Positions 43,241-64,000 of a stretch of DNA of 64,000 nucleotides are shown here, piece after piece. This DNA comes from an uncultured Eubacteriales bacterium (GTDB lineage Bacteria > Acidobacteriota > Aminicenantia > Aminicenantales > UBA8522): contig CAYGXD010000003.1 in NCBI GenBank assembly GCA_964353705.1, positions 891 to 64,890 of the forward strand, given 5' to 3'. The translations under genes were made by a program, and so were the position numbers. The stretch's first letter is position 1. Every line of letters begins with the position of its first letter. The notes under the pieces are model-generated. The model was not told the origin of the DNA and made no database searches. It saw only the letters and a list, made by a program, of their open reading frames with translations.

Positions 43241-45034
43241 CTACCCGCTGTTTTTCTCTTCCTCGTAAAGGGCGTCGATCAAGGTTTTGTATTTCTGTTC
43301 GATGATGTTCCGCTTGACCTTGAGGCTGGGGGTCATCTCTCCCTTCTCGATCTCGAAATCCCGGTCGAGAAGGGCGATCTTTTTGACCCTCTCGTACTGG
43401 GCCAGGTTGGGGGTGGCCCGGTCGACTTCGGCTTTAAGGAAACTGACCACCAGCCCGTTACGGACGAGCTCGGCGCGGCCGGCGAAGGGGACATTGCTCG
43501 ACCGGGCGTATTTTTCCAGCTTCTCGAAATTGGGCACGATCAGGGCGCAGACGAACCTGCGGCGGTCGCCGATGACAACGGCGTTGGAGATGTAGGGGTT
43601 GGTCTTGAGGAGGTTCTCGATCGGTTGAGGCGCGATATTCTTTCCGCCGGCCGTAACGATGATGTCTTTTTTGCGGTCGGTGATGACGACAAACCCGTCT
43701 TTGTCGATATGCCCGATATCTCCGGTGTGGAACCAGCCTCCTTCAAACGCTTCCCGGGTTTCGGCCTCCTTCTTGTAGTAGCCTTTCATCACGTGCGGCC
43801 CGCGGGTCAGGATCTCCCCGTCCGGAGCGATCTTGACATCCACTCCGGGGATGGGCTTGCCGACCGTCCCCAGCCTGATGTTCTCAAACGTGTTGACCGA
43901 GATCACGGGGGAAGTCTCCGTCAAGCCGTATCCCTCCAGGATGACGAGCCCCAGGGCGTAGAAAAACTCGGCGATGTCCTTGGACAGGGGCGCTCCTCCG
44001 GAGACGAAAAAGCGCACCCGGCCGCCGGTTTTTTCAATGATCTTGGAGTAGACCAGCTTGTGGGCCAGGTTTCTTTTTCTCTGGAGCCCGCCGGGGATCG
44101 TCTCCTTGTTCAGCTTGCGGCGGCCGTATTCCTTTCCCACCTTGAGCGCCCAATAGAAAATCCTTTTCTTCAGGGTCGAGCTGGAGAGGACGTTGTCCAT
44201 GACCTTGGCATAGATCTTCTCAAAAACGCGGGGAACACTGACCATGATGTTCGGCCGGATCTCGAGCAGATTCTCGCCCACCGTCTCGACGCTTTCGGCA
44301 TAACCGATCCGACAGCCCTTGAAAATATAAGTGAAGGTGACCATCCTTTCCAGGATGTGGGACAGCGGCAGGAAAGAAAGCACAGTATCTTTATCGGAAA
44401 ACTCAACGATGGTGGAAATGGTCTGGACGTTGCTCAGGAAATTGCTGTGGGTGAGGATGACTCCCTTGGGAAGACCGGTCGTGCCGGACGTATAGATGAG
44501 GGAAGCTTCGTCCTCGGGTTTGACCACGTTGACGAGCGACTCAAACAGCGCCGGGTCCTTCTCCTCGAGCTTGCGGCCCCGGCCCATGACCTGATCGACT
44601 GTGAGAACGCCCTCCGGCGCCTGTCCCAGGAAGGTGATGTAATGGCGGACTTTGCTCAGGCTGGACTTTACGGCCTCGACCTTCTTCCAGAGATCCTCGG
44701 AGGAAACGAAGACGGCCTTGGCGTCGGAATCATCGATGATGTACTTGATCTGCTCGGGGACCAGGGAGGTATAAATGGGGACGGTGATGGCCCCCAGGCA
44801 GAGGTTGGCGTGATCGGCGATGACCCATTCGGGCCGGTTCTCGGAAAGGAGGACGACCTTATCCCCTCTCTGGAGGCCAAGATCCCTGAGCCCCAGGCAC
44901 AGGTGCCTGACCCGCCGGCCGAACTCCTCGGTCGAGAGCGGCTGATAACGGCCTTCCGACTTGTAGAGCATGAAGTCCGGCTTGGGATAGTTCCTGACGG
45001 TATCCAGAAGAACATGGGCGAGCGTACCGGCCAT
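43241..45034 (-). CDS. long-chain fatty acid--CoA ligase (AMP-binding)
   Basis: AMP-binding motif YTSGTTGLPKGV, plus TGDIG and GKNIAPQPIE. 597 aa. Confidence 0.8.
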   Translation of the reverse strand: MAGTLAHVLLDTVRNYPKPDFMLYKSEGRYQPLSTEEFGRRVRHLCLGLRDLGLQRGDKVVLLSENRPEWVIADHANLCLGAITVPIYTSLVPEQIKYIIDDSDAKAVFVSSEDLWKKVEAVKSSLSKVRHYITFLGQAPEGVLTVDQVMGRGRKLEEKDPALFESLVNVVKPEDEASLIYTSGTTGLPKGVILTHSNFLSNVQTISTIVEFSDKDTVLSFLPLSHILERMVTFTYIFKGCRIGYAESVETVGENLLEIRPNIMVSVPRVFEKIYAKVMDNVLSSSTLKKRIFYWALKVGKEYGRRKLNKETIPGGLQRKRNLAHKLVYSKIIEKTGGRVRFFVSGGAPLSKDIAEFFYALGLVILEGYGLTETSPVISVNTFENIRLGTVGKPIPGVDVKIAPDGEILTRGPHVMKGYYKKEAETREAFEGGWFHTGDIGHIDKDGFVVITDRKKDIIVTAGGKNIAPQPIENLLKTNPYISNAVVIGDRRRFVCALIVPNFEKLEKYARSSNVPFAGRAELVRNGLVVSFLKAEVDRATPNLAQYERVKKIALLDRDFEIEKGEMTPSLKVKRNIIEQKYKTLIDALYEEEKNSG

Positions 45035-45147
45035 TTCTCCCTCCTGAGTTAAGGTGGGCTCATTGTAGATTCAGGCCGGGCGACTGTCAAGGAAAAGTTG
45101 AGAACCGGCCCGCCGGGGCGAGGGGATCCGGTTCCGCGCAGCAGGTT

Positions 45148-46176
45148 CTACTTGCTGACGTCCGAATCCTCGTCGGGCCAATTGTCGTCGGTGCGCTTCC
45201 AGGTCTTGTCCGGGTTGTAGCGTTCCATCGCTTTGACAATCTCGAGCGAGTCCGGCCCCAGGTCTTTTTCGTAGACGATCCCGTCATAGCTGACCATAAA
45301 GGTCTTGACTCCCGTAACTTGGTATTCGATTGGAACAGCGACGAGGGCGAATCCTCCGATCATCAGCCCCTTGATCACATAGTCGAGCTCCCCCAGAGGC
45401 GCCGCCGGCCCCTGCCCTTTTAAGACTTTGAAATAGTAGCCGTGGTAACCGGATCCCTTGACGGAGTAACCTTCCTCGATCGCGCGCGCAATCGCTTCGC
45501 TGATGGGGCCGCCCGGGGTGCCATCCGCATTCTTCCAAACCAAGCCATCCTTTTTCCCGGGAGTGCTGAAGATCTTCTGGGCGTACTGGTTGATCCCGGT
45601 GAGCTCGCGGGCCATCAACGCGTATTCGTATTGAGCTTCGACGAAGCCCCGGCAGATCTGGATGGCGTCCAGCTCATTGGCTCCAATGCGCCGGAAGACG
45701 ACCTCGTCGAGGCCCGCCGGGGAGTCAAAATACCACTTGCCCTCCTTTTTAACGAGCGGAACCGGAAATGGCCAATCCAGCTCGCCGACGATCAGGACCG
45801 CACGTTCCGGTGTCTTCGGATCCAGGTACACGGTGTGCTTCTCTCGAGCCTTTGCGGCGAAAGCTTCCACGGTGTTCCTATCCTGCACAGGGTCAGCCGC
45901 AGGCAGGAGATCCTTGCCCTCGGGACCGAAAATCTCCAAAAGAGCCGGCCCATCATAGCGCTCCGCTGCCTCAATCAAGGCAGCGGCCGCTTGCTGCGGT
46001 GTATCAAAAGCTTTTTGAGCGGAAGGGGCAGACGCTGAGGCTTTCTGCGCGGACTGCGGCTCCGCGGCTGAAATGACGCTCAGGGCGCCGGATAGGGCGG
46101 CCACGCCAATGGAGAGAAGAGCGCGCCGTACGACTTTCACGCCTGTTATTGAACTCATAGCCTTATCCTTGTTCAT
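45148..46176 (-). CDS. secreted DUF2950-like protein
   Basis: AAGGAGG lies 9 nt before ATG 46176. Signal peptide. Consistently adjacent to the DUF3300-like gene, as this pair usually is. Confidence 0.5.
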   Translation of the reverse strand: MNKDKAMSSITGVKVVRRALLSIGVAALSGALSVISAAEPQSAQKASASAPSAQKAFDTPQQAAAALIEAAERYDGPALLEIFGPEGKDLLPAADPVQDRNTVEAFAAKAREKHTVYLDPKTPERAVLIVGELDWPFPVPLVKKEGKWYFDSPAGLDEVVFRRIGANELDAIQICRGFVEAQYEYALMARELTGINQYAQKIFSTPGKKDGLVWKNADGTPGGPISEAIARAIEEGYSVKGSGYHGYYFKVLKGQGPAAPLGELDYVIKGLMIGGFALVAVPIEYQVTGVKTFMVSYDGIVYEKDLGPDSLEIVKAMERYNPDKTWKRTDDNWPDEDSDVSK

Positions 46177-46184
46177 GGTCTGGT

Positions 46185-47420
46185 TTACCTCCTTCTCCCG
46201 CCGCCGCCACGCGAGCCTCCAAAGCTCGAAGATCCCCGGGAACTGCTGGCTCGTGCGGAGCGGCCGCTTGTGCCGCTGGAAGCCCCGCCGAAGGCACCGG
46301 AGCTGCGCGATTTTCCGCCGTTGGAAACGCTCCGGCTGCCTACGCGGTCCCCGCCTCCACCGCCGCTGCGGTCCATCGTGCTGCCCTGTCGACTGCTTCC
46401 CGTTCTTGCCTGCTGCTGGCGCGCGCTGGACTGCCGCGCCGACATGGAATCGCCGCGCGCCGTCCCGCCGAATTTGTTGGCTGTCGCCCTGTCCGAGTAG
46501 GGAGCGCCGCCGCGATGCTGCGGGTTGTGCTGCCAGTTGTTGCCGCCGCCGCGGTTGATATTGGTGTTCCTATTGAAATCGTTGTGCACATTGATGTTGA
46601 CATCATTGTGCCCCCAGCCGCAGCCCCAGCCCCAGCCGCCGCCGAACGCGGCTCCCATGAACACTCCGATCCCGAACGAAATCGCCACGCCTGCGGCATA
46701 ATACCCCGGCGGGGGATAATAGATCGGCGGATAGGGATAGACAGGCGGGCCATAGATGACTGTCGGGTTATAGCTGGGAACATAGATCACCTGCGGATCA
46801 GACTGCTCGATGACGATCACCTCCTTGGTATCGACCACCTTGGTTTCCACCTTCTGCTGCTCGGAGGGTTTCAAGTTCCCCTTATCCTGGGCCTTTTTCC
46901 TCATGCGTTGGACCGCGTCCATGACATCAGCCTGCTGCGCCAGAAAAGCATTCCCCAGATCCGTAGCCCACTTGATGTCATCCGCCAGCCGCTTGACGAC
47001 ATCCGGAAGCGACGCCATGGCCTGGATGCTCGGATCCCAATCCTGCTTCTTCACCGCATCCGCCAGCGCCTGGTCTTTCAGGTCCTTGTTCTTCTCCAGC
47101 CACTGTTGAAGCTGGACGATCTCCAGGGGATATGTCGAGGCGACGAGGACCTGGCTGAGAAGCGGGTCGGGATAGAGGGCGATGGGAGCCACCAGCGAAT
47201 CCAGTTGATCAGTGGACAGTTTCACGGCGGCCTCGGGTGCGGCCGCTGTCTGCTCAGTGGCCGTCTGCGCCGCAATTGCCGAGATCATCCACTCTCCCGG
47301 CGCCAGGAGTGCGGCACAGAGAACGGCTAAAAAGACCTGAAAAGTCCGCCTCTCACGCCGGATTTTGGACAATAGTCTTAAGGTTATCGGAGGGGAGAAA
47401 AGCCTTGCTCTGACTGCCAT
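46185..47420 (-). CDS. secreted DUF3300-like protein with a Gly/Ser/Arg-rich low-complexity C-terminus
   Basis: AAGGAG lies 8 nt before ATG 47420. VAPIALYPDPLLSQVLVASTYPLEIVQLQQWL matches the DUF3300 core. The last ~150 aa are GGG/SS/RR repeats. Confidence 0.5.
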   Translation of the reverse strand: MAVRARLFSPPITLRLLSKIRRERRTFQVFLAVLCAALLAPGEWMISAIAAQTATEQTAAAPEAAVKLSTDQLDSLVAPIALYPDPLLSQVLVASTYPLEIVQLQQWLEKNKDLKDQALADAVKKQDWDPSIQAMASLPDVVKRLADDIKWATDLGNAFLAQQADVMDAVQRMRKKAQDKGNLKPSEQQKVETKVVDTKEVIVIEQSDPQVIYVPSYNPTVIYGPPVYPYPPIYYPPPGYYAAGVAISFGIGVFMGAAFGGGWGWGCGWGHNDVNINVHNDFNRNTNINRGGGNNWQHNPQHRGGAPYSDRATANKFGGTARGDSMSARQSSARQQQARTGSSRQGSTMDRSGGGGGDRVGSRSVSNGGKSRSSGAFGGASSGTSGRSARASSSRGSSSFGGSRGGGGRRR

Positions 47421-47590
47421 AAAGGTGCTCCTTTTATTTCAAGAGATTCCGGAATAGCCTTTTTCCCAAGGAAAAAGCGGCCCCAACTAAGAACGGCATC
47501 GGAAGATGCGAAAGCGGCTGTAACTATGAATGTTCACTCATAGATGATATTGAGGGAACCCGCCGTTGTCAATGGACGGCGAAGCCTGCT

Positions 47591-48715: not shown

Positions 48716-48841
48716 CCCCTGGACTCCTTTCCATCAATATGCTGCTGTCACCATAAGAGCTGAATTATTATAAAAAAATGACACAACAACTTCACTATAT
48801 AAAACAAATCGGCGGTTTTTCGTTATTCGCGGGCGTCCCGT

Positions 48842-49462
48842 TCAAAACAACGCCTGGGAATATTCCCGGAGTCGAGCCCGGCGGCGCCGCGCATCCGGCA
48901 TGCGGCTATCCAGTTCGGCCCAAAAGGCCCGGCCATGGCCTCGGACGCGGGTATGGACGAGTTCGTGAAGGATGACGTAATCGGCCAGGTCCGGCGGCAC
49001 GACGGCCAGGAGCGCGTTGAGTTGGATGCGGCCGGAGGGCGAGGCGCTGCCCCAGACGGTCCCCTGGCGGCGGACACTCAGGCGGCCGGGGCTATAGCCG
49101 TGCTCGCGGGCCAGAGCGTCCAGGCGCTTGGAGAGATACGCCCGGGCGGAGCGGCGGTCCAGACGCTCAGCGGCTTGGACCGTCTCACGGCAGCGGCTGC
49201 GGGCGCGCTCAATATGGGCGAGCGCGCGCCTGATCCAGCCAATCTTGGCGAGGGCGACTCTTCGCGCTTCCTGGAACGGCACGCGCCAGGGGACAGCAAC
49301 CCGGACCCTCCGGGAGGCCCGTACGGTCAGCGAGATGCGGCGGGCCCGCCGGGTCTTTTCGAACAGAACGGGGCCGACACCGTCGAGGCTGAACGTCCGA
49401 GATCTTCTTGGCGTCGCGCGGGGCTCACTGCCTTCAAGCATGGAATCGGCGCCCGTCCTCAC
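48842..49462 (-). CDS. YgjP-like (DUF45 / M48-related) zinc metallohydrolase
   Basis: HELVHTRVRGHGRAFWAEL (HExxH plus downstream) near the C-terminus. Size typical of DUF45. Confidence 0.6.
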   Translation of the reverse strand: MRTGADSMLEGSEPRATPRRSRTFSLDGVGPVLFEKTRRARRISLTVRASRRVRVAVPWRVPFQEARRVALAKIGWIRRALAHIERARSRCRETVQAAERLDRRSARAYLSKRLDALAREHGYSPGRLSVRRQGTVWGSASPSGRIQLNALLAVVPPDLADYVILHELVHTRVRGHGRAFWAELDSRMPDARRRRARLREYSQALF

Positions 49463-49518
49463 GACGCGATGATATTACCGGCCAAAGACAGGAGTCAAGG
49501 ACTCAGCATCCGGAGGGC

Positions 49519-49600
49519 GCGCTCTCAGCTCTCTTCGGCCTTGGGCACCGAGCAGATCTTGTCCCTGTTCGCCAGGTTGATCAGGCGCACGCTGGGCGGG
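49519..49600 (-). repeat. copy A of a GyrA-C-terminal-tail-like segment (3-prime gene-end fragment with stop codon)
   Basis: Minus-strand translation gives ...SVRLINLANRDKICSVPKAEES-stop (stop = revcomp of 49525-49527). About 80% identical over ~75 nt to copy C, with no upstream ORF attached. Confidence 0.6.
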
Positions 49601-49618
49601 CCGGACGGCCTCCGGACA

Positions 49619-49924
49619 TCAGGTCTTCTCCAGGAATTCCTTGAAGCGGGCCCGATAGGCCTTGAAGGCTGCAGCGCCCGCGTCGGTCAGACGGACGAGG
49701 GTTAGGGGGATGCGCCCGCGGTAGGTCTTTTCGATGGTGATGTAGCGGGCCTCCTCGAGCTTGGCCAGGTGCGAAGAGAGGTTCCCTTTAGTCAATCCGG
49801 TCTCGCGCTGAAGGTAGAGGAAATCGGCACTCTCGACGACCGAGAGGATGGCCGTCAGGGCGAGGCGGGCCGGCTCGTGGATGAGACGGTCGAGGCCGGC
49901 CAGGTCGCGAAGGTCAGTGGGCAT
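49619..49924 (-). CDS. winged-helix transcriptional regulator (HTH_34/PadR-like small regulator)
   Basis: 101 aa. ETGLTKGNLSSHLAKLEEARYITIEK is a wHTH recognition-helix plus wing pattern. Confidence 0.55.
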   Translation of the reverse strand: MPTDLRDLAGLDRLIHEPARLALTAILSVVESADFLYLQRETGLTKGNLSSHLAKLEEARYITIEKTYRGRIPLTLVRLTDAGAAAFKAYRARFKEFLEKT

Positions 49925-50561
49925 CGGTACCCTCCGTGCCTCCGGCGTCGGGGCGGGGCGAGCGCCTGAAGTAGACTATGAGGGCGGCCAGGCCGGAGAC
50001 GACCATGGCGGCGCCGAAGAGGCCATAGTAGAGGCTGACCCCCTTGATGTCGCCGAACCCGGACGCGGTGACAGCGACTCCGATTGCGGCCGAGGCCGCG
50101 GCGAGGACGTAGAAGCGGACAAGGCCGACCCTGTTGGCGATGAAGAAAACGGCGACGGCGAACAGAAGGCCGTTCAGAGCGGGAAAGAAGGCCTTGAGCG
50201 ACGGCGAGAGCGTGTAGAGCGCGGCGAGAGAAGCGCCTATGAGACCGGCGGTGATCGCGACGGCGGCGCGACGCTTCGGATTCGGCTCTTTTTTCTTGAA
50301 CGCCACGTAGCCGGTTCTGGGGTAGGTGATGCGGCGCTTGAAGTAGCGCATAAAGCGGCTGACGAGGAATCCGGATGAGAAGATGACGAAGACGAACAGG
50401 ACGCTGAGCACCGCGTTGAGCGGGGAGCCCTCGGGGATGGCCGCCTGGGCGAAGAAATAGCCCCCGAGCAGAAGGAAGATGAGGCCGAGCGCGATCTCGT
50501 TCAGGCCGTCGTCGTAGAAGCTCTGGACGGTCCGTTTCTCGATCCTTTTGATGTCGATCAT
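49914..50561 (-). CDS. integral membrane protein (4 TM) paired with the upstream wHTH regulator
   Basis: GGAG lies 9 nt before ATG 50561 (MIDIKRIEKRT...). Four long hydrophobic helices. Its 3-prime end overlaps the regulator start by 11 nt. Confidence 0.5.
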   Translation of the reverse strand: MIDIKRIEKRTVQSFYDDGLNEIALGLIFLLLGGYFFAQAAIPEGSPLNAVLSVLFVFVIFSSGFLVSRFMRYFKRRITYPRTGYVAFKKKEPNPKRRAAVAITAGLIGASLAALYTLSPSLKAFFPALNGLLFAVAVFFIANRVGLVRFYVLAAASAAIGVAVTASGFGDIKGVSLYYGLFGAAMVVSGLAALIVYFRRSPRPDAGGTEGTDAH

Positions 50562-50748
50562 GTTTTTTCTCCACTGTGGTTTGTAATACAAACTAGTTTG
50601 TATAATAACATGGATTTGGGGATTGTCAAGCGAAATCGTATTGGATTATGCTAAGCGCATATCAAGAAACCGCAGAACGTACCAAGGCCATCGAACGGAG
50701 GATCCATAAACGAAAGGCGAAGCGCCAGGGGAAAAAAAGGGATGGCCC

Positions 50749-50800
50749 TCATCTCTCCTCGGCCTTGGCCACTGAGCAGATCTTACTCCGGTCTTGCCTC
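50749..50800 (-). repeat. copy B of the GyrA-tail-like segment
   Basis: Minus-strand translation gives ...RSKICSVAKAEER-stop. A short (~50 nt) copy directly abutting an IS91-transposase C-terminal remnant on the other strand. Confidence 0.55.
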
Positions 50801-50888
50801 TTCTCGCCTTTTTCCTTTTTTCCGTATGCCCTGCTCCTTTTGCGGCGCCACGATGAAGATCATCGCTTTCCTCACCGCCTATAAAGCT

Positions 50889-51269
50889 ATGTCGCAATTC
50901 GGGAGAGACTACGCACCAACATTAAGAACGGAATATTCATTTGAAATCCCTATCAGTGATACCAATGTTCTGCTGGCCGCCTTTCTGACGGATGGAATCT
51001 GTGCCAAGCTTCTCACCCGCACACGCAAGCGCCGCTTTGATCTCTTCTTCTGCCCCCGCATCCTGAATGAATTTAAACGCATCATAAGCAAGAAGTTCAA
51101 GGCCGGCAGGGAAGAAACCGCCGCCGCAGTCGCCATCCTCCATGAGGCCGTCCAAACCATGGTGAAGCCGGTTACAGCGGATGAAAAGCGGTCCGAAGGT
51201 CACCCCGTTTTTCGCGCGGCATGGGATCGCAAAACCAAGATATCCCGGCCCGCGGACAGGTGTCAATAA
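50889..51269 (+). CDS. PIN_3-type PIN-domain protein (putative TA toxin), inside a mosaic ORF
   Basis: ISDTNVLLAAFLTDGICAKLL...FDLFFCPRILNEFKRIISKKF matches the PIN_3 pattern DTNVLxxA...ILxEYxxVL. The containing ORF (from 50742) reads through the repeat copy and a CSFCGATMKIIAFLTAY transposase-tail remnant. Start is uncertain and no SD is present. Confidence 0.4.
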   Translation: MSQFGRDYAPTLRTEYSFEIPISDTNVLLAAFLTDGICAKLLTRTRKRRFDLFFCPRILNEFKRIISKKFKAGREETAAAVAILHEAVQTMVKPVTADEKRSEGHPVFRAAWDRKTKISRPADRCQ

Positions 51270-51327
51270 CTCGAAATCCGGGGGGCGGGAGCTCCGGGGG
51301 GGATTGTCGGTCCGGACGGCTGAACAC

Positions 51328-51516
51328 TCAGTACTTTGGTTTTACGCCGGCCTGCTTGCACAGCTCGTTGGCTGTTATCCTATCTAAGGATTTATGCCTT
51401 TTCACGGGGATCGTCTTTTTGTCGTTCGTATAAATGGAATGGCTCTTGCCTTCGCGAAAAAGAAAGAACCCGTTTTCTTCGAGGTAACGGATGAGATCCC
51501 GGCGCTTGACGGACAT
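51328..51516 (-). CDS. hicA: HicA-family mRNA interferase toxin
   Basis: 62 aa: MSVKRRDLIRYLEENGFFLFREGKSHSIYTNDKKTIPVKRHKSLDRITANELCKQAGVKPKY. YcfA/HicA fold pattern (...GxxxxRxxGSHxxxx...P.H...L..G.L..I.KQAG). Confidence 0.8.
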   Translation of the reverse strand: MSVKRRDLIRYLEENGFFLFREGKSHSIYTNDKKTIPVKRHKSLDRITANELCKQAGVKPKY

Positions 51517-51735
51517 CTAAATCTGAGCAGGAATCTGCTCCAGCAGCGCGCCGCCCACGGGAATCTCTTTTTTTTGCCGGCGATAGGCCAAGATCATCTC
51601 ATGAAGAGCATCTTGGAGCATGGCTCGGCATTCTTCGAGGGTTTTCCCCTCCGTCACGACCTCCGGCCACTCGACGAGTTGGCCCATGTAACCGGATTTA
51701 ACCTTGATGTATTTAGCTATATAAGTGGAGAACAT
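51517..51735 (-). CDS. hicB: HicB-family antitoxin
   Basis: 72 aa immediately upstream of hicA (stop/start adjacent). GKTLEECRAMLQDALHEMILAY is the HicB N-domain pattern. TATAAT and AAAGGAGAG lie upstream of ATG 51735. Confidence 0.7.
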   Translation of the reverse strand: MFSTYIAKYIKVKSGYMGQLVEWPEVVTEGKTLEECRAMLQDALHEMILAYRRQKKEIPVGGALLEQIPAQI

Positions 51736-52079
51736 GATTTCTCTCCTTTATAAATCCATTATAACGGTTTTTAAAGGGAAAAAGGAGGAAACCCCTACAG
51801 AAAATAAAAAAAGGGCAGACTACCCTGAGAATAAGAATGAGAATAAGAATTTCGTTTTCGGCTGTGGTGGCCGAACGAGCCCTGGGGTGTCGATTTTCCC
51901 CTCCAAACATCGTGGGGAAGTATAAAGGACGACTCAAAAAGATGTCAAGGACAGCTTGGGGGTGTAGGTTATATCCGCAAGGCCTTCCGAGGCGCCTAAA
52001 GCACGGGAAATCACCCAGACCTCTCCTCCCGGTAGAGAGAAGATCATGAAAAATATCCGCTACTGGTCTCGGCGGCCCT

Positions 52080-52677
52080 CAGAACTTCCTGATAGGCTAG
52101 GTGCGTCGGAGGAGGTCTATCGGCGACAAAGCTTAGCTTGAGGTGGCCGATGATGCGATCCACCAAGGCATAATCGGTGAGGAAAGCGATGATCTTCATC
52201 GGGCCGCCGCATTGAGGGCAGACCAGCGGATCAACTTCTTAGACTTTACGGATCATCTCAGCCCCGCCCTTGGAGGGGATGGGCCGGAGCTCCTCCCTCC
52301 ACAACCCGGAGAGGAGAAGACCTCAGGTTTGCCTTCCTGACCTTCCCTCGATGGGCATTGGCATAGAGCCCGTAGTAGCGGACCATGACCTGGCCCCTGT
52401 CAGGAATGGGCGAGGTCACCCGGGCGATGAACTCCAGATAATCCATCGTCTCCAGTTCGGCCGCCTCCCGGCCCCAGCGGTAGCCGACCTTGCCCTCCCG
52501 CTCATCCAGGGAGAGGCGCTCCAGGGAAAGGACTGGCCGGACCATGTATTTCCCGACCCGTTCGGCTTCGATCTTTGTCCGGGCGCGGACCCGGCCGTGG
52601 ACGTTGAAACCACTATGCCGCCACGAAAGGATCCGCTCGACCCACTCCGGGCTAAGCAATCCTCTGCTCACCAGCAA
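52080..52677 (-). pseudogene. IS91-family (Y2) transposase C-terminal remnant, frameshifted
   Basis: ORF 52258..52677 ends ...RYYGLYANAHRGKVRKANL. In another frame just downstream (52143..52232, minus) comes CPQCGGPMKIIAFLTDYALVDRIIGHLKL, the characteristic IS91 TnpA C-terminal tail. No N-terminal HUH/Y2 domain is present. Confidence 0.55.
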
Positions 52678-52925
52678 TTTGACTTTTCAGGTCCGCTGGC
52701 TGAAGCAGCGTTTTCGTCCTTATTGCTCCCTCCAACTATCCCGAGGAAGAATAAAAACTGGCAATAAGAGACGTCAAGCACAACGACGGCGCGCGGGTGA
52801 TGTCGACAAGCCGGACCCGCCAGCGACAGAGTCGGCAGCCGCCCCGGGTTGCAACTTTTTACCAGCGCCTATAAAATTGCCAAGAAGACCAAGTTTCTAT
52901 CGATTTATAGAGGAGGAATCTGGGG

Positions 52926-54125
52926 ATGAATCAGAGAAAGAAAAACGCACCAATTTCTCGCTGTGTTTTGACCGCTTTGCTTTCGCTCTTTCTGGTTTTG
53001 CTTTCGTCGGCCTGTGCAAATAAGGAAGTATCCAAAAACCGGCAGCTTTCACAAATTACCCTGAAATTTAGGGAAAAGCTTCAGGTCTTCAAGAACCAGG
53101 TCGGATTTCCTGGAGCCACAGCGGCATTTGCTTTGCCGGAGGGGCCCTTTTCGTCAGTCGCCGTAGGAAATTCTGACGAGGAGAACAAGATCGAGATGAA
53201 GCCCCTGGATCGTATGCCAGCGGGGAGCGTTGGAAAGGCATTTGTGGCCGCATTGGCCATCCTCCTGGCCCAAGAGGGCAGGTTCAATCTGGACGACAAG
53301 ATCGAGAAGTGGCTGGGCGATGAAGACTGGTTTCCGAGGTTACCCAACCACGAAGATATAACCATCCGGACCCTCTTGAACCACAGGAGCGGCCTTAAGG
53401 ACCACGCCTTTGAGTCTGAAGAATTCGCCCGGGATCTGGGAAAAATGATGGCCACAAACCAGGACGCGGTCATCACGCCCGAACAATTGGTATCTTATGT
53501 TTTGGACATCCCTCCGCTTTTCAAAGTGGGGACGGATTTTCATTATTCAGATACAAATTATATCCTCGTTGGGATCATCATCGAGAAGGCCACACGATCG
53601 TCCTATTATGAGGAGCTAACGAACCGCACCTTGGCCAAGTTTAGCTTAAACAATACTCTCCCCGCGGATAAAAGGGAGCTCCCCGGAATTGTTCCCGGTT
53701 ATCTGGATCCCAACGGTCCATTCGGATTGTCAATAAAGAAAACCATCCAAGATGGACGGTTGATTTTTAATCCTCAGACAGAATGGACAGGCGGGGGGTT
53801 GATCTCGACTTCCGAGGATCTTGCACGATGGGCAAAGCTTTTGTACGGAGGGAAGCTCTCAGCAAAGCCTTATCTGGAGGAGATGTTGGACTTCGGCGGA
53901 TTCCAATATGGGTTGGGGGCAGGATTGAGAGAAACCGAGCTGGGGAGAGCGTACGGACACAGCGGTTATTTTCCCGGGTACAACACGGCTATGGGCTACT
54001 TTCCGGACCATAAAATAGCTGTGGCCATCCAAATCAACAGGGATTACGATGTGGGAGATCCCTCATCCCAGTTGGTTGAATTAGCCAAAGTCGTTATCGA
54101 AGAGCTTAAACCTCGAACCAAATAA
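52926..54125 (+). CDS. serine hydrolase of the beta-lactamase/PBP class C family, lipoprotein
   Basis: GAGGAGG RBS. Lipobox LLSSAC. SxxK motif AGSVGKAF and a YxN-like YSDTNY region. 399 aa. Confidence 0.7.
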   Translation: MNQRKKNAPISRCVLTALLSLFLVLLSSACANKEVSKNRQLSQITLKFREKLQVFKNQVGFPGATAAFALPEGPFSSVAVGNSDEENKIEMKPLDRMPAGSVGKAFVAALAILLAQEGRFNLDDKIEKWLGDEDWFPRLPNHEDITIRTLLNHRSGLKDHAFESEEFARDLGKMMATNQDAVITPEQLVSYVLDIPPLFKVGTDFHYSDTNYILVGIIIEKATRSSYYEELTNRTLAKFSLNNTLPADKRELPGIVPGYLDPNGPFGLSIKKTIQDGRLIFNPQTEWTGGGLISTSEDLARWAKLLYGGKLSAKPYLEEMLDFGGFQYGLGAGLRETELGRAYGHSGYFPGYNTAMGYFPDHKIAVAIQINRDYDVGDPSSQLVELAKVVIEELKPRTK

Positions 54126-57045: not shown

Positions 57046-57762
57046 TCAGATCTTCCGCATCCGGTATTGAATCCCGCTCGCTCCCGCGACGATCAAATCG
57101 GTGGCGAGCCCGATGAACAAACCATGCTCGACGATGCCCGCGCGTGAAGTCAAAGCCAGCGCCAGTTGTCGCGGCTCGGCGATGGGCCCAAAATGACAAT
57201 CCAAGATCATGTTGCCCGAATCAGTGACGAACGGGGTTCCGTCCCGATTTTTGCGGATCGTGTATTTGGCGCCAAGAGATTCGAGATAGCGCGCCTGCGA
57301 CTTCCAACCGAAGGGGATCACTTCGACGGGCACAGGCCAATGTGTTCCCAGGCGGGGCGACGGTTTGGTTTCATCCACAACGATAATCTCGCGTTGGCTC
57401 ACCTGCGCCACGATCTTCTCTCGCAGCAACGCGCCGCCGCCGCCTTTGATCAAGTTCATTTCCGGGTCGACTTCATCGGCGCCGTCGATCGTCACGTCGA
57501 GATCTTCGGGCAAGTCGTCGGGCAGCATGGGAATGCCGAGCCGGACGGCTTCTTCGGCCGTGGCCTTCGAGGTCGCAAAGGCGACGATGTCTCTCAGTTC
57601 GCCCGTTTTCAGCAGTTCCGCGATACGGCGCGTGGCAAAGATGGCCGTGCTGCCGGTGCCCAGTCCAACCTTCATCCCTGAGCGCACGAATTGCACCGCG
57701 CGCTTGGCGGCCGCTTCTTTGAAATGCGCTTCCGGATCCGCTGAAGTCGAGCCTCTACTCAT
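57046..57762 (-). CDS. rpiA: ribose-5-phosphate isomerase A
   Basis: KVGLGTGSTAIFATRRIAEL, DGADEVD and KGGGGAL blocks. 238 aa. Confidence 0.85.
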   Translation of the reverse strand: MSRGSTSADPEAHFKEAAAKRAVQFVRSGMKVGLGTGSTAIFATRRIAELLKTGELRDIVAFATSKATAEEAVRLGIPMLPDDLPEDLDVTIDGADEVDPEMNLIKGGGGALLREKIVAQVSQREIIVVDETKPSPRLGTHWPVPVEVIPFGWKSQARYLESLGAKYTIRKNRDGTPFVTDSGNMILDCHFGPIAEPRQLALALTSRAGIVEHGLFIGLATDLIVAGASGIQYRMRKI

Positions 57763-57764
57763 GT

Positions 57765-57944
57765 TTACTCCGTATAGTCCGCTGCCGCCAGCCGCGCATA
57801 AATCGCTTTGGGCGTTCCCCCGCCGGACACCGCGAGGATAAATCGGCCGCGCTCGGCGATGGCGGCGGCGGCAACAGCCGTGATGAAATCGGCCGCGCCG
57901 GCGATAAAACCCGGTTTATCGGGAAAGACATGCAACTGAGTCAT
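57765..57944 (-). pseudogene. pgl: N-terminal 59-codon fragment of a 6-phosphogluconolactonase (Pgl/DevB, NagB-fold) gene
   Basis: Minus-strand ATG 57944 gives MTQLHVFPDKPGFIAGAADFITAVAAAAIAERGRFILAVSGGGTPKAIYARLAAADYTE, then TAA 3 nt before the rpiA ATG. FxLALSGGSTP...Y..LA is the Pgl N-terminal signature. No continuation exists in any frame. Confidence 0.5.
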
Positions 57945-58041: not shown

Positions 58042-58308
58042 TCAAATCGCGAAGTCCTTTCCCAACCGATAGGCCTGTTCGAGCCAGGCGCGCCGCGCCA
58101 TCTTCGCGCCCCAGGGGTCGAGCTTCACCTTGATGATCAGCTTGCCGTCCGATGTGCTGACCCACGGCTCATCGAAGACATAAGCGCGAGCGGGGTCGAG
58201 GCCGAGCTCCGCCAGACGGATGCCCCCTTCAATCGTCCGTGTCCGGTCGTCGAGGTTGAAGGCGTTGACGGCGACCCGGCGTCCGAGCGCTTCGAGGGCC
58301 CCTGCCAA
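58042..58308 (-). CDS. small conserved hypothetical protein (about 88 aa), paralog of a gene ending at the window edge
   Basis: Coding sense ...NAFNLDDRTRTIEGGIRLAELGLDPARAYVFDEPWVSTSDGKLIIKVKLDPWGAKMARRAWLEQAYRLGKDFAI. Must start after the kinase stop (58322), so a TTG start at 58308 is proposed. The ORF track's 183 aa version overlaps the kinase and is rejected. Confidence 0.35.
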   Translation of the reverse strand: MAGALEALGRRVAVNAFNLDDRTRTIEGGIRLAELGLDPARAYVFDEPWVSTSDGKLIIKVKLDPWGAKMARRAWLEQAYRLGKDFAI

Positions 58309-61417: not shown

Positions 61418-61485
61418 CGCTGGCTCGCCTCAGCGCTCAGGTGGCTTCAACCGATACTAAGATAGCATAAAACCTGGGGACGCGC

Positions 61486-61690
61486 TCAGCTTTCTTCGGC
61501 CTTGGCCACCGAGCAGATCTTGTCCCCGTTCTCCAGGTTGATCAGACGGACGCCCTGAGTGGCGCGGCCGACCGCCCTGACCTGTTTGGTCTGGATGCGG
61601 ATGACTTTGCCGCTCAAGGTGACAATCAGCAGGTCGTCTTCCGCGACGCCCAGCACGGCCACGGCCGGCCCGATCTTGGGCGTAGACGAC
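61486..61690 (-). repeat. copy C (longest) of the GyrA-C-terminal-tail-like segment; about 68 codons of a GyrA beta-pinwheel-blade-like 3-prime fragment
   Basis: Minus translation gives PKIGPAVAVLGVAEDDLLIVTLSGKVIRIQTKQVRAVGRATQGVRLINLENGDKICSVAKAEES-stop. GRATQGVxLIxL plus the acidic tail are typical of a GyrA/ParC C-terminal domain. No upstream start and no long ORF in that frame. Confidence 0.55.
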
Positions 61691-61791
61691 GAGGGGTAAG
61701 GAGGTCAGGGCGGAAGTGGAGAGAGATTTGACATGCTGATCCCGGTCGGATAGTCTTTCCTAAAACAAGATCCCTAGAGAAAGGAGGAAAC

Positions 61792-63741
61792 ATGATAAGG
61801 AAGATGTTTTGCCTGCTTGTGATTTTCGGGTTCATAGCCTGCGGAATCGCAGATGCGAAGATTGGGGCAGGAGACCAATCAAAATCTCAGCCAGGGCCCC
61901 GGCCCATAACGACGAACAAGGACAGAGTTCTCATGGCGGCCGTCCAGGCAAGGATCGCCGCGCCACAGCCCTCTCGAGGCTACATAACAACCTGGGACGG
62001 AAGGCCGAAGTTCGCGATAGGAATCGGAGGGATCAACTATAACCTCAAGCTTGGGGATCGAGTCTTCGGTTGGGCGGCCGCCGACCGGGCGACGGTCGGA
62101 GTCGCGGCGGAGGCCGTCGAGGAAGGCCGGTCCGGCAGGTCCTGGAACACGCTCACCTCGATCGGGAACGAAGTCAAAATCCTGACTGGCCAAGCGAGCG
62201 GCGAGAAGGGAGTCGTCATCGGCAAGTTCCTGGATATCGTCAGCTTCGGGAACTTCGACCTGATCCATTTCGACGACTCGGCCCTGGAGAAACTTGCGAT
62301 CGGAGACCTCGTCCAGGTGAAAGCCAGCGGGGCCGGGCTTGAGATCGAAGGTTTCAAGGACGTCTTCATCCACGGCCTGGCGCCCGATGTCCTTGAAAAA
62401 TTCGGCCTCCAGGATGTCGGCGGAAGGCTCGAGGTTCCCGTCGTTAAGGCGATCCCGGCCGAGATCATGGGACAGGGAGCTGGCATGGGCAGCCTCACCG
62501 GCGTCTGGCATATCCAGACCTGCTACTCTCCCGATATCAAAAAATACGGCCTGGACGAGCTTCGGTTCGGGGACCTTGTCCTGCTTCAAGACGTCCAGAC
62601 CGACTACGGCAAAGGCTATTACAAGGGGGGCGCCACGGTCGGAGTCGTGAGCAGCGGGCCGAGCGACATGTCGGGCCTGGGGATCGGAGTAACGCCGGTG
62701 CTCTCGACCAGGTTCGGCAAGCTCGTGCCGCGGATTGATCCGGGCTCGAATATCGGTCGTTATCTTGGCATAGAAATGGCGGCCGCGCGAATCGAAGCCG
62801 GCCGAATCTCTTCTTCCGAGGCGGCCGCTCCCCTCGCCCAAAAAGCCAAGAGCTCGCCATCCGGCCTCCTGAGGACCAACAAGGACGAGCTGATCATGAC
62901 GGCTGTCCAGGGAGTTGTTTCGCCCACGGAAGGCGCGGAGTATTCGACGAGCTACGACGGCCGACCGGTCCAGACACTCGGCATGGGTTCCATCAACTAT
63001 ACGGTTTCGATCGGAGATTCCACATACGGCTGGGCCGCCTCGGACCATGTGGAGCCCGACGTCACCATCCAGGGGCAGGAGAAGCCGTCCCCCTGGGAAG
63101 CAGCGGTGGCGTCACTCGCCTGTATCGGGAACGAGGCGCTTGTCATTTCGGGCGAGGCGACCGGATCCAAAGGGATCTATCTCGGAAGACACGCCGGTTC
63201 GGATGACAAAGTCTGGTTTCCCAAGGAAGTCAAGGAGAAACTCGCCCTGAACGACAAGGTCCAGGTCAGGGCCAAAGGAGTCGGGCTCAAGATCCTGGGC
63301 TTCGAGGATGTGAGGGTGAACAAGGTTTCTCCGGAGCTGCTCGAGAACATGGGGATCACGATCGAAGGCGGACAGCTGGTCGTCCCCGTGGTGATGGAAA
63401 TTCCCGCCCACATCATGGGCTCGGGGCTCGGGTTTCCGTTTATCGAGGCGCTGGATTACGATATTCAAACGACCTGCCCGGAAATCGTCGAGACGTACAA
63501 TCTCAAGAAACTCAGGCTGGGGGACGTGGTGGCGATCAGGGACGCCTATGATGTTTACGGCCCCGGCAGGTATGAAGGCGCGGTGACGATCGCCACCATC
63601 ATCCATGGTTTCAGCAATCTCTCCGGACACGGACCGGGCGTCAACGTGGTGCTGAGCGCGCTGCCTGGAAAGATCAAAACGCGCCTCGACCCGGAGGCCA
63701 ATACGGCCTATTATCTGGGGATTAGGGCCAGGCCCAGATAA
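61792..63741 (+). CDS. secreted protein of unknown function built from two homologous ~300 aa halves
   Basis: AAAGGAGGAAAC RBS. Signal peptide MIRKMFCLLVIFGFIACG. Half 1 (TNKDRVLMAAVQ...WDGRPKFAIGIGGINYNLKLGDRVFGWAAAD) is repeated as half 2 (TNKDELIMTAVQ...YDGRPVQTLGMGSINYTVSIGDSTYGWAASD), with further collinear matches (GEKGVVIGKF / GSKGIYLGRH; VPVVKAIPAEIMG / VPVVMEIPAHIMG). Confidence 0.6.
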   Translation: MIRKMFCLLVIFGFIACGIADAKIGAGDQSKSQPGPRPITTNKDRVLMAAVQARIAAPQPSRGYITTWDGRPKFAIGIGGINYNLKLGDRVFGWAAADRATVGVAAEAVEEGRSGRSWNTLTSIGNEVKILTGQASGEKGVVIGKFLDIVSFGNFDLIHFDDSALEKLAIGDLVQVKASGAGLEIEGFKDVFIHGLAPDVLEKFGLQDVGGRLEVPVVKAIPAEIMGQGAGMGSLTGVWHIQTCYSPDIKKYGLDELRFGDLVLLQDVQTDYGKGYYKGGATVGVVSSGPSDMSGLGIGVTPVLSTRFGKLVPRIDPGSNIGRYLGIEMAAARIEAGRISSSEAAAPLAQKAKSSPSGLLRTNKDELIMTAVQGVVSPTEGAEYSTSYDGRPVQTLGMGSINYTVSIGDSTYGWAASDHVEPDVTIQGQEKPSPWEAAVASLACIGNEALVISGEATGSKGIYLGRHAGSDDKVWFPKEVKEKLALNDKVQVRAKGVGLKILGFEDVRVNKVSPELLENMGITIEGGQLVVPVVMEIPAHIMGSGLGFPFIEALDYDIQTTCPEIVETYNLKKLRLGDVVAIRDAYDVYGPGRYEGAVTIATIIHGFSNLSGHGPGVNVVLSALPGKIKTRLDPEANTAYYLGIRARPR

Positions 63742-63932
63742 GGATATCGGCCTGCCGGGTGATATCCCCATGGCCATCACCCGGAGGCAATACCTGGGCT
63801 CAGTCGTGCAGCATGTCAAATTGAACTGGGAAGGCGACCCGCTGTGCCTCAGTTTTAGGGCGCGGCGCGGCTGGACCGGCTAATCTTCCTCGAAGAAATG
63901 AGCGCGGAGATCCTCTTCGGGCATTTCAATTC

Positions 63933-64000
63933 GCGAAGTCCTTTCCCAACCGATAGGCTTGCTCGAGCCAAGCGCGCCGCATCTCCGGGCTCGAAACGTC
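63933..64000 (-). CDS. 3-prime end of a paralog of the 58042..58308 gene (gene body lies beyond the window end)
   Basis: Minus translation ends ...EMRRAWLEQAYRLGKDFAN-stop. About 87% nt identity over ~60 nt with 58045..58105 and an identical C-terminal peptide RRAWLEQAYRLGKDFA. Confidence 0.4.

Follow-up and report, generated by a model that had tools for sequence, protein, structure and literature searches.

Fragments of the gyrA 3' end and IS91 remnants in a strain-variable patch of an uncultured Aminicenantes chromosome, and their possible origin in one-ended rolling-circle capture

Introduction

How does a short chromosomal segment come to hold, side by side, toxin-antitoxin (TA) genes, pieces of a transposase and an intact regulator-membrane gene pair, in a place where related strains differ? 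We asked this of a patch at about 49500-52700 of the window, the stretch of 64,000 nucleotides (nt) analysed here, which comes from contig CAYGXD010000003.1 (positions 891 to 64,890, assembly GCA_964353705.1) of an uncultured Candidatus Aminicenantes bacterium (Acidobacteriota); all coordinates are those of the window. An earlier note on this DNA had described the patch as a degraded accessory region left by repeated mobile-element traffic, and the core of that reading holds, given the strain variability and the dead IS91-family pieces described below. Taken alone, the patch is routine, TA genes and transposon debris in a variable spot, and none of its components (hicBA, a PIN gene in decay, the intact regulator-membrane operon, IS91 pieces that are dead) is out of the ordinary. 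Its architecture is explained by fragments of the 3' end of gyrA and by the link of these fragments to IS91 ends; neither the fragments nor an IS91 left-end remnant at about 50650-50723 nor an 18-nt palindrome had been recognised in the earlier note. The explanation we favour, with some confidence though not a great deal, is that the patch represents two units of an accretion array anchored on gyrA, built through one-ended rolling-circle capture by an IS91-family element and subsequent reinsertion or homologous recombination.

Truncated gyrA ends in the window and in related contigs

Three copies of the gyrA 3' end, all truncated at their 5' side, lie on the minus strand of the window, each ending at the gyrA stop codon; they comprise the last 12-68 codons of the gene, and a gyrA body is attached to none of them. 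They contain a direct repeat of 47-73 nt, two copies of which (49520-49592 and 61481-61553) are 90% identical (E=1e-22 within the window); the third copy lies at 50745-50784. The minus-strand translation of the repeat reads ...GVRLINLENGDKICSVAKAEES*, and the longest fragment, of 68 amino acids (aa), matches the Pfam profile DNA_gyraseA_C, a blade of the GyrA C-terminal beta-propeller, at E=4e-13. Fragment 1 (49525-49611, minus strand) retains 23-30 codons and lies 8 nt past the stop codon of the regulator gene. Fragment 2 (50749-50805, minus strand) measures 36 nt by BLAST and 57 nt when compared with the related contig L008. Fragment 3 (61486-61692, minus strand; 66-68 codons) is outside the patch, belongs to the same system and is nearest to gyrA. 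We also considered the 47-nt repeat 49514-49560/50738-50784 as part of an IS91 gene, an idea dropped because the third copy, at 61481, encodes a GyrA blade.

The three fragments have aged differently. Compared with real gyrA alleles, fragment 3 differs at 8-22 synonymous and 0-3 non-synonymous codons, which is within allelic diversity and, being almost only synonymous, marks it as young, and fragment 1, farthest from gyrA, has decayed, with 4 non-synonymous changes among 6-9 differing codons. The newest material would thus adjoin gyrA, and the locus offers a readable fossil series in which the decay of gene-end fragments tracks distance from gyrA. That such fragments serve as functional mini-proteins or as decoys for gyrase toxins was rejected, as their lengths and N-termini vary, many lack a start codon, and the oldest gathers non-synonymous changes.

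About 50 related contigs, gathered through exact-protein look-ups and one metagenome DNA scan and designated here by L numbers, provided more than 25 distinct gyrA fragments. Their lengths run from 31 to 215+ nt; every one of them stops at the stop codon, a core common to all reaches no further than the last 31 nt, and the fragments are co-oriented with the real gyrA wherever the two occur on the same contig (L019, L028, L029, L038 and L040). In four cases (the window's regulator gene, a SnoaL gene, an M55 gene and the gene for a 422-aa protein in L030) the 5' edge of the fragment lies 3-17 nt past the stop codon of a cargo gene. When 5.8 billion proteins were searched with a fragment, 34 matches were returned, all of 37-119 aa and with unrelated N-termini. 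When the GTDB species genomes were scanned for exact matches to the fragment pattern, none was found; the phenomenon is concentrated in one species-level lineage. If our reading is correct, short gene calls annotated as DNA gyrase subunit A in these genomes are relics and should be treated with caution.

A gene end other than that of gyrA also recurs in the window. Two segments of 55 nt, 93% identical, at 58042-58096 and 63926-63980 end two different open reading frames (ORFs) with ...RRAWLEQAYRLGKDFA(I/N)*. At 63926 the segment forms the genuine 3' end of a Flavodoxin_2 gene that L026 carries intact. Its counterpart at 58042 has lost its 5' part and stands as an orphan fused to the C-terminal piece of the 422-aa protein, which precedes it; here, too, homology ceases at the stop codon. 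In L025, L030 and L052 a gyrA fragment takes this place behind the 422-aa protein. Next to the fragment at 58042-58096, a trace of IS91 could not be detected. The 88-aa ORF at 58042-58308 had been considered a glycoside-hydrolase remnant, a candidate dropped because Pfam was blank both for it and for its full-length relative in L030.

Strain variability and the ancestral gyrA site

The patch was reproduced at 99.6-100% identity in independent assemblies (L007, L013, L016-L018); L007 (ENA, 5154 nt) spans 48809-53962, and L016 and L013 (JGI), with L011-L018, cover the rest, so that a chimera can be ruled out for the patch. Strains that are 93-94% identical (L008, L009 and L034) keep the order YgjP, fragment 1, regulator, membrane gene and fragment 2; upstream of fragment 2 they carry a SnoaL-like gene in place of the IS91 piece, the PIN gene, hicBA and the IS91 remnant (50806-52429). 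The comparison with close relatives that the earlier note had proposed therefore supports its view of the patch as accessory. Its description of the patch as degraded is right for the IS91 pieces and wrong for the regulator-membrane pair, which is intact, has its own strong promoter-like site and palindrome, and is kept in all relatives compared. This pair behaves as a discrete unit with gyrA 3' fragments on both sides, and occupies another position in contig Ga0315275_10002197, where the order is AMP-binding gene, fragment, regulator-membrane pair and M55-YgjP. The ORF upstream of fragment 2 in L008 was at one point taken as gyrA; this was rejected, as it encodes a SnoaL/ketosteroid-isomerase-like lipoprotein.

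In 35 of 52 GTDB species representatives of the Aminicenantes, the gene for an AMP-binding protein, found at 43241-45034 in the window, lies no more than 250 nt behind gyrA; the two are separated by inserts of 0.7-8.4 kb in 15 others, and an empty gyrA/AMP-binding site is present in L042 and L054. Contig L026 is 98% identical to window positions 61709-64000 and places the stop codon of the real gyrA 1.8 kb beyond the DUF4438 gene, from which gyrA is probably located about 2 kb past the right end of the window, on the minus strand. With gyrA directly before the AMP-binding gene in most species, the window from 45101 to beyond 64000, at least 19 kb, would represent inserted material. This changes the role of the YgjP-like gene and the serine hydrolase gene, which the earlier note had used as conserved anchors of the patch: both lie inside the larger array, which also carries genes for M55, an S9 peptidase, rpe, rpiA, a kinase and DUF4438. 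The arrays of L019, L028, L029, L038 and L040 are built alike, the real gyrA being followed by 1-3 co-oriented fragments with 0.7-5 kb of varied cargo between them, and the cargo of related arrays includes ParE/Phd, HicA, methylases, flavodoxin-like reductases, DUF72 and tetratricopeptide repeat proteins.

Elsewhere in the window, a DUF3300-DUF2950 gene pair at 45102-47584 (Pfam E=1e-77 and 8e-105) is missing from L006, 94-97% identical, which has 120 nt in its place, among them a 35-nt gyrA fragment. Position 52429, inside the IS91 remnant, is also the contig start in five independent Logan assemblies, and one such assembly ends at 61522, inside fragment 3; these contig ends indicate that the repeats fragment short-read assemblies. 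The proposed array, if real, would explain the assembly breaks seen downstream of gyrA in these genomes.

IS91 remnants and the ends of the element

The earlier note had reported two remnants of an IS91 transposase C-terminus, one on each strand. Both are real, with boundaries that we now place at 50841-50882 (plus strand) and 52047-52677 (minus strand). The latter is a pseudogene consisting of the C-terminal half only, matching Y2_Tnp (PF04986; 52258-52677, E=6e-12) over profile positions 85-179 of 183 and the NCBIfam IS91 model NF033538 over positions 214-317 of 356. It keeps the Y2 motif RYYGLYANAHRG and a CxxC zinc ribbon, is interrupted by one frameshift (near 52296-52299) and by a TAA in frame (52239-52241), and begins some 45 residues past the HPHLH...TEGG region of its homologues. 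As neither the N-terminal zinc domain (Zn_Tnp_IS91) nor the HUH motif was found in it, the remnant is IS91 by descent and dead. The transposase match to the model for ISCR clade Ia (NF052416) reached only 24 bits against a cut-off of 925, so that membership of the ISCR clade is not indicated. The plus-strand piece, 42 nt long (CSFCGATMKIIAFLTAY), is 90% complementary to 52170-52211, forming an inverted repeat with it, and gave a tblastn match to IS91 at E=3e-4; the same head-to-head junction between an IS91 piece and a gyrA fragment exists in L044.

Both ends of the element could be placed by comparing copies. Alignment of independent copies puts the left terminus, GTCGCCGnnnGTTGAC, about 85 nt before the transposase start codon, and the right end, ...AAAAnnnAAtTTCCTAT, about 200 nt past its stop codon. 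The two ends are unrelated to each other, and terminal inverted repeats are absent. The 3' non-coding end is conserved in the window, L044, L031, L030 and L026, which diverge past motif AAAAnnnAAtTTCCTAT, and has a regular layout of stop codon, about 90 nt, TTGACA-17/18-TATACT, 75-95 nt and the motif. In the window it occupies 51826-52046 (minus strand) and presumably represents the oriIS side; its promoter-like TTGACA-18-TATACT (51948->51919) faces outward, and its terminal motif GAAATTCTTAT underlies a tandem of a 12-nt unit, TGAGAATAAGAA, repeated 2.1 times at 51826-51850. What the earlier note had seen as an AT-rich noncoding stretch with a short tandem is thus this conserved IS91 3' end, the tandem and the low GC content being real (0.46 over 51736-52046, against 0.579 for the whole window and 0.49 for the 5th percentile of 300-nt windows). 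A scan of 49300-53000 against Rfam at E<=1 returned a single chance-level snoRNA match, and no known RNA lies in the AT-rich stretch. Another candidate right end, CCTACACCCC|CAAG at 51959, was rejected because homology between copies runs about 110 nt further.

Searches with the IS91 sequences returned about 1,660 C-terminal and 905 N-terminal homologues. Among the homologues listed, C-terminal calls of 237-243 aa repeatedly begin at (V/L/M)TEGG (P0035-P0274, L134-L147), and the transposase gene of this lineage seems usually to be read as two ORFs split near TEGG, routinely at one point. The split could reflect a shared frameshift, programmed or not, or mass decay.

Position of IS91 copies behind co-oriented genes

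The two kinds of repeat meet at the gyrA stop codon. In L026, L044 and L047 the real gyrA or a fragment is followed immediately by IS91 in the same orientation; in two distant species (L086 and L091) IS91 lies about 1 kb downstream. In L044, L047 and L028 the left terminus is situated 27-28 nt past the gyrA TGA, just beyond the terminator-like sequence CCTCCTTTTT. In the window, fragment 2 is followed on the minus strand by a degenerate version of this arrangement, namely 25 nt resembling the gyrA terminator (GGGCCATCCCTTTTTTTCCCCTGGC) and a remnant of the IS91 left, terIS-side end (50748->50650, approximately), aligned with L044, L047, L134 and L135; degenerate left termini also occur in L025, L038 and L051. 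Of 43 gyrA TGA junctions overall, 21 have sequence derived from IS91 no more than about 60 nt away or pass directly into IS91 coding sequence.

Genes other than gyrA show the same positioning. In another genome a racemase gene has its stop codon 12 nt before the IS91 left end, and in a third an orphan GroEL C-terminal fragment ends 113 nt before it; wherever the left end could be placed, it lies 12-113 nt past the upstream stop codon. The GroEL fragment (L134:3524-3802; 92 aa, matching Cpn60_TCP1 at positions 413-487 of 490) flanks the terIS side of an IS91 copy in an 827-kb contig; it has its own perfect intrinsic terminator, and the gene upstream of it is RibD_C, not groEL. For all seven independent IS91 copies compared (among them L134, L135-L137, L138, L139, L140-L142 and L143-L147), the upstream gene (gyrA, the groEL fragment, racemase, ParE/YoeB, GH38, peptidase M16 or MacB) is co-oriented, reaches its stop codon 83-382 nt ahead of the transposase start and is faced by the terIS side. 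Were orientation random, such agreement would have a chance of about 0.008 for one specified orientation, or 0.016 two-sided.

Origin of the array

In IS91, terIS is on the 5' side of tnpA and oriIS on the 3' side, and termination fails in 1-10% of events, which mobilises DNA beyond terIS (PMC13181058). We infer from the arrangement of fragments and element ends that the gyrA fragments arose by one-ended transposition. An IS91 element would insert just behind the stop codon or terminator of a co-oriented gene such as gyrA, its terIS side facing the gene; where termination at terIS failed, replication would continue into the gyrA 3' end and halt at variable points, yielding units made of a 5'-truncated gyrA end, its stop codon, its terminator and IS91. 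These units might reinsert behind other genes, capture them and come back to gyrA, through a new insertion or through homologous recombination across the gyrA fragment, and the locus would eventually read gyrA, cargo, fragment, IS91 relic, older cargo, fragment and so on, with the IS91 copies decaying afterwards. In the sense of gyrA, a unit A would then comprise the IS91 3' half with its ori-side end, hicB-hicA, the partial PIN gene, the inverted IS91 scrap and fragment 2, and a unit B the terminator and IS91 left-end relic, the membrane protein gene, the regulator gene and fragment 1, with YgjP-M55 beyond. Read-through by a co-oriented element behind gyrA would be expected to give fragments with a fixed 3' and a variable 5' boundary, as seen, and the shuffling of units between strains needs only recombination between fragments; either reinsertion by transposition or homologous recombination could have assembled the array.

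Several of our results weigh against this proposal. About half of the TGA junctions, including that of fragment 3, carry no IS91 trace, and the species with inserts at the gyrA site mostly lack gyrA fragments, self-fragments downstream of gyrA being found in only 2 of 80 species-representative loci (L115 and L122). No consistent CTTG, GTTC or CGAG pseudo-termination site was seen at the fragment 5' breakpoints, nor, when CTTG/GTTC was sought, any consistent tetranucleotide in the flanks past the terminal motif, where copies differ. The putative terminal motif on the ori side is defined by alignment of six or seven copies and by reference to the oriIS core of IS91 and ISCR elements. Among the best 120 of each homologue search no intact IS91 copy was found, all calls being of 250 aa or less, and IS91 activity in this lineage would be historical and is best called putative. 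The adjacency of gyrA to the window, moreover, derives from the contig of another strain, L026, and the co-orientation of IS91 with its upstream genes could stem from lagging-strand targeting or purifying selection rather than from targeting of terminators.

Alternatively, the region behind gyrA might be a permissive intergenic site that takes up DNA by transformation and homologous or illegitimate recombination, with the fragments left by local duplication and deletion and IS91 surviving best downstream of genes. This we consider unlikely, even though it would accommodate the 15 species with inserts there that have neither fragments nor IS91, the half of the junctions that lack IS91, the orphan Flavodoxin_2 end without adjoining IS91, and unit shuffling, which needs no more than recombination between repeats. 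Random duplication and deletion, however, does not predict ends that fall exactly on the stop codon with variable 5' edges, and this scenario predicts neither the uniform orientation of the seven IS91 copies nor the repeated occurrence of IS91 termini set directly against the gyrA terminator.

The sharp boundary of the fragments at the gene end, and their character as partial target-gene 3' ends in one orientation, are on the other hand a classic mark of genomic islands, and the array could be a tandem of small islands inserted by a site-specific integrase using the gyrA 3' end as attB, in which case the fragments would be displaced gene ends (attR) and IS91 incidental. The use of the site as a hotspot across the class would suit such a mechanism, as would the age polarity of the fragments, which fits any model of gyrA-proximal insertion. 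We nevertheless regard this origin as improbable: no tyrosine or serine recombinase gene lies in the window's 19 kb of array, and no integrase family with at least two members was found among 69 ORFs of 20 arrays (single-ORF families were not all listed). In addition, some units measure no more than 1.2 kb, the repeats range in length between 31 and 215+ nt with a common core limited to the last 31 nt, the fragments adjoin IS91 left ends together with the native terminator, and the same pattern recurs with a groEL fragment beside IS91 in another genome. Last, an assembly artefact, that is a chimeric metagenome-assembled contig joined through repeats, can hardly be the cause, for although the Logan contigs, in breaking at 52429 and 61522, show that these sequences are repeated or vary between strains in the samples, independent assemblers and samples cover each junction of the patch at 99.6-100% identity.

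If capture by IS91 is accepted, a broader and more tentative possibility is that this lineage targets the terminator or stop region of co-oriented, often highly expressed housekeeping genes (gyrA, groEL) and acts as a prokaryotic Helitron, carrying off gene 3' ends, stacking captured genes behind an essential gene and expressing some of them from its own outward promoter, as might be the case for YgjP through its leader. A preference for insertion just behind stop codons would then be possible; to our knowledge, insertion just behind co-oriented stop codons is not a described property of IS91.

Comparison with known systems

The closest parallel might be found in ISCR1-linked complex class 1 integrons, where a truncated 3' conserved segment (3'-CS) is followed by ISCR1, a variable region and a duplication of the 3'-CS (PMC3575428). 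In both cases the transposase-5' side is at the conserved segment, cargo is on the ori side and the segment is duplicated in 5'-truncated form, and assembly through one-ended transposition and homologous recombination has been proposed for both (PMC3575428). The layout of conserved segment, IS, cargo and truncated duplicate is found here in that gyrA or a fragment is followed by IS91 in L026, L044 and L047, and arrays with 1-3 downstream fragments exist in L019, L029, L038, L040 and the window. An outward promoter at the ori end seems to be a further feature common to ISCR1 integrons and the IS91 array. In contrast to those integrons, which duplicate the 3'-CS, the array has as its duplicated anchor the end (3') of gyrA, a chromosomal and essential gene; it stacks several units, and its cargo comprises TA genes, housekeeping-like genes and unknown genes instead of genes for resistance. 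It belongs to an uncultured Aminicenantes, its IS91 copies are all degenerate, and the transposases fit the general IS91 model far better than that of the ISCR clade.

With IS91, IS1294 and IS801 the element shares matches to Y2_Tnp, Zn_Tnp_IS91 and NF033538, dissimilar ends that lack terminal inverted repeats, and the placement of the transposase 5' side toward the captured DNA, as expected of terIS read-through (PMC13181058). It departs from them in that no CTTG/GTTC target is seen at the ori end or at fragment breakpoints, and in that gene calling usually divides its transposase gene into two ORFs near TEGG. Eukaryotic Helitrons are likewise rolling-circle HUH transposons that read through their terminator and accumulate host gene fragments stepwise (PMC4778049); the present element, in contrast, is prokaryotic and lacks a helicase domain, and the fragments it carries come from the very 3' end of the gene directly upstream rather than from internal exons. 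Islands that integrases insert at the 3' ends of tRNA or protein genes resemble the array in their direct partial target repeats, tandem arrangement and placement of the newest unit beside the gene, and differ from it in that no integrase was found, the repeats vary greatly in length and the units are very small.

As far as we know, natural footprints of IS91-type one-ended transposition come mainly from resistance plasmids (ISCR1) and a few plant pathogens. The array appears to be an environmental, chromosomal case of such capture in an uncultured phylum, and in the literature we found no paper that mentions both Aminicenantes and IS91. If it is such a case, orphan 3' gene ends on the terIS side of IS91 would be a simple signature of rolling-circle capture in metagenomes.

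Regulator-membrane operon and YgjP leader

Genes were identified from an ORF listing and from profile searches against Pfam and NCBIfam. The regulator, a winged helix-turn-helix (wHTH) protein of the ArsR-like HTH_34 type (49619-49924, minus strand; Pfam E=3e-24), is found identical on 12 contigs and is encoded by the downstream gene of a two-gene operon. As stated in the earlier note, it overlaps the upstream gene, by 11 nt, which encodes a protein with several transmembrane segments (49914-50561 from an ATG or 49914-50591 from a TTG, minus strand; 215 or 225 aa) that gave no match in Pfam or NCBIfam. The minus-strand segment 50586-50629 upstream holds a promoter-like site, TTGACA-16-TG-TATTAT (50629->50602, 11 of 12 matches), and, on its 3' side, a perfect 18-nt palindrome (50586-50603, TTTGTATAATAA... 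/ ...TACAAACTAGTTTGTA) that overlaps the -10 hexamer by 2 nt. Judging from this placement, the palindrome is a probable operator of the wHTH protein, which would probably regulate its own operon by binding beside the -10 hexamer.

The neighbouring YgjP-like metallopeptidase gene (48842-49462, minus strand; Pfam E=1e-37) has a leader, at 49404-49518 on the same strand, that is homologous to the first 100 nt or so of the 3'-terminal module of an IS91 subfamily (blastn against the 3' end in L026, E=2e-11). This part of the module corresponds to the promoter and the first 25 or so codons of the YgjP gene, and the leader holds a promoter-like TTGACT-18-TATCAT at 49498->49469; in L029, L035 and L040 the module directly follows gyrA or a fragment. 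The homology suggests that the YgjP leader derives from IS91, and that YgjP-M55 is apparently transcribed from an outward promoter of IS91 origin.

TA cargo and composition

HicAB and PIN modules are typical cargo of variable regions. The earlier note had correctly reported an intact hicB-hicA pair with its own TATAAT box and ribosome-binding site: hicB (51517-51735, minus strand; UPF0150/HicB, PF21748, E=1e-8) precedes and abuts hicA (51328-51516, minus strand; HicA_toxin, PF07927, E=1e-11) at 51516/51517, and TATAAT and AAGGAG are located upstream at about 51740-51770. The two folds in abutting genes are those of HicAB modules. The pair looks like a working addiction or stress module. In its hicB-hicA order and in a HicB of only 72 aa, without a DNA-binding extension, it differs from known HicAB systems.

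The PIN gene is in another condition. As the earlier note had observed, a PIN_3 domain is embedded in an ORF that reads through foreign fragments, here a mosaic of 175 aa (50742-51269, plus strand), the first 49 codons of which run across the antisense of fragment 2 and the IS91 piece. The partial gene proper (50889-51269, plus strand; domain at 50958-51179) matches PIN_3 only over residues 73-146 of the ORF and profile positions 5-82 of 115, and TIGR00305 over positions 5-72 of 115 with 21.7 bits against a cut-off of 29.15. The first conserved Asp (ISDTNV) is kept, as in VapC-like PIN toxins, and, unlike in those, the domain is incomplete, its C-terminal third being unrecognisable. Lacking that third as well as a gene for a partner antitoxin, the PIN gene is probably an inactive pseudogene.

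Related contigs repeatedly carry TA genes (ParE/Phd, HicA, YoeB/Phd and an intact PIN_3) beside gyrA fragments or IS91 copies, as in L019:5356-5900 and 10671-11436, L138:2245-2747 and L031:651-1052; these are not orthologous to the TA genes of the window. Base composition changes sharply between neighbouring units of the array, GC content being 0.65 over the YgjP/wHTH/membrane block (48842-50591), above the 95th percentile of 300-nt windows, and 0.51 in the adjoining PIN/hicBA block. Elsewhere in the array, a gene call of 61 aa at 57759-57944, which adjoins rpiA in the annotation of relatives, matches Glucosamine_iso (6-phosphogluconolactonase-like) and has a stop codon inside its translation; it resembles a truncated pgl.

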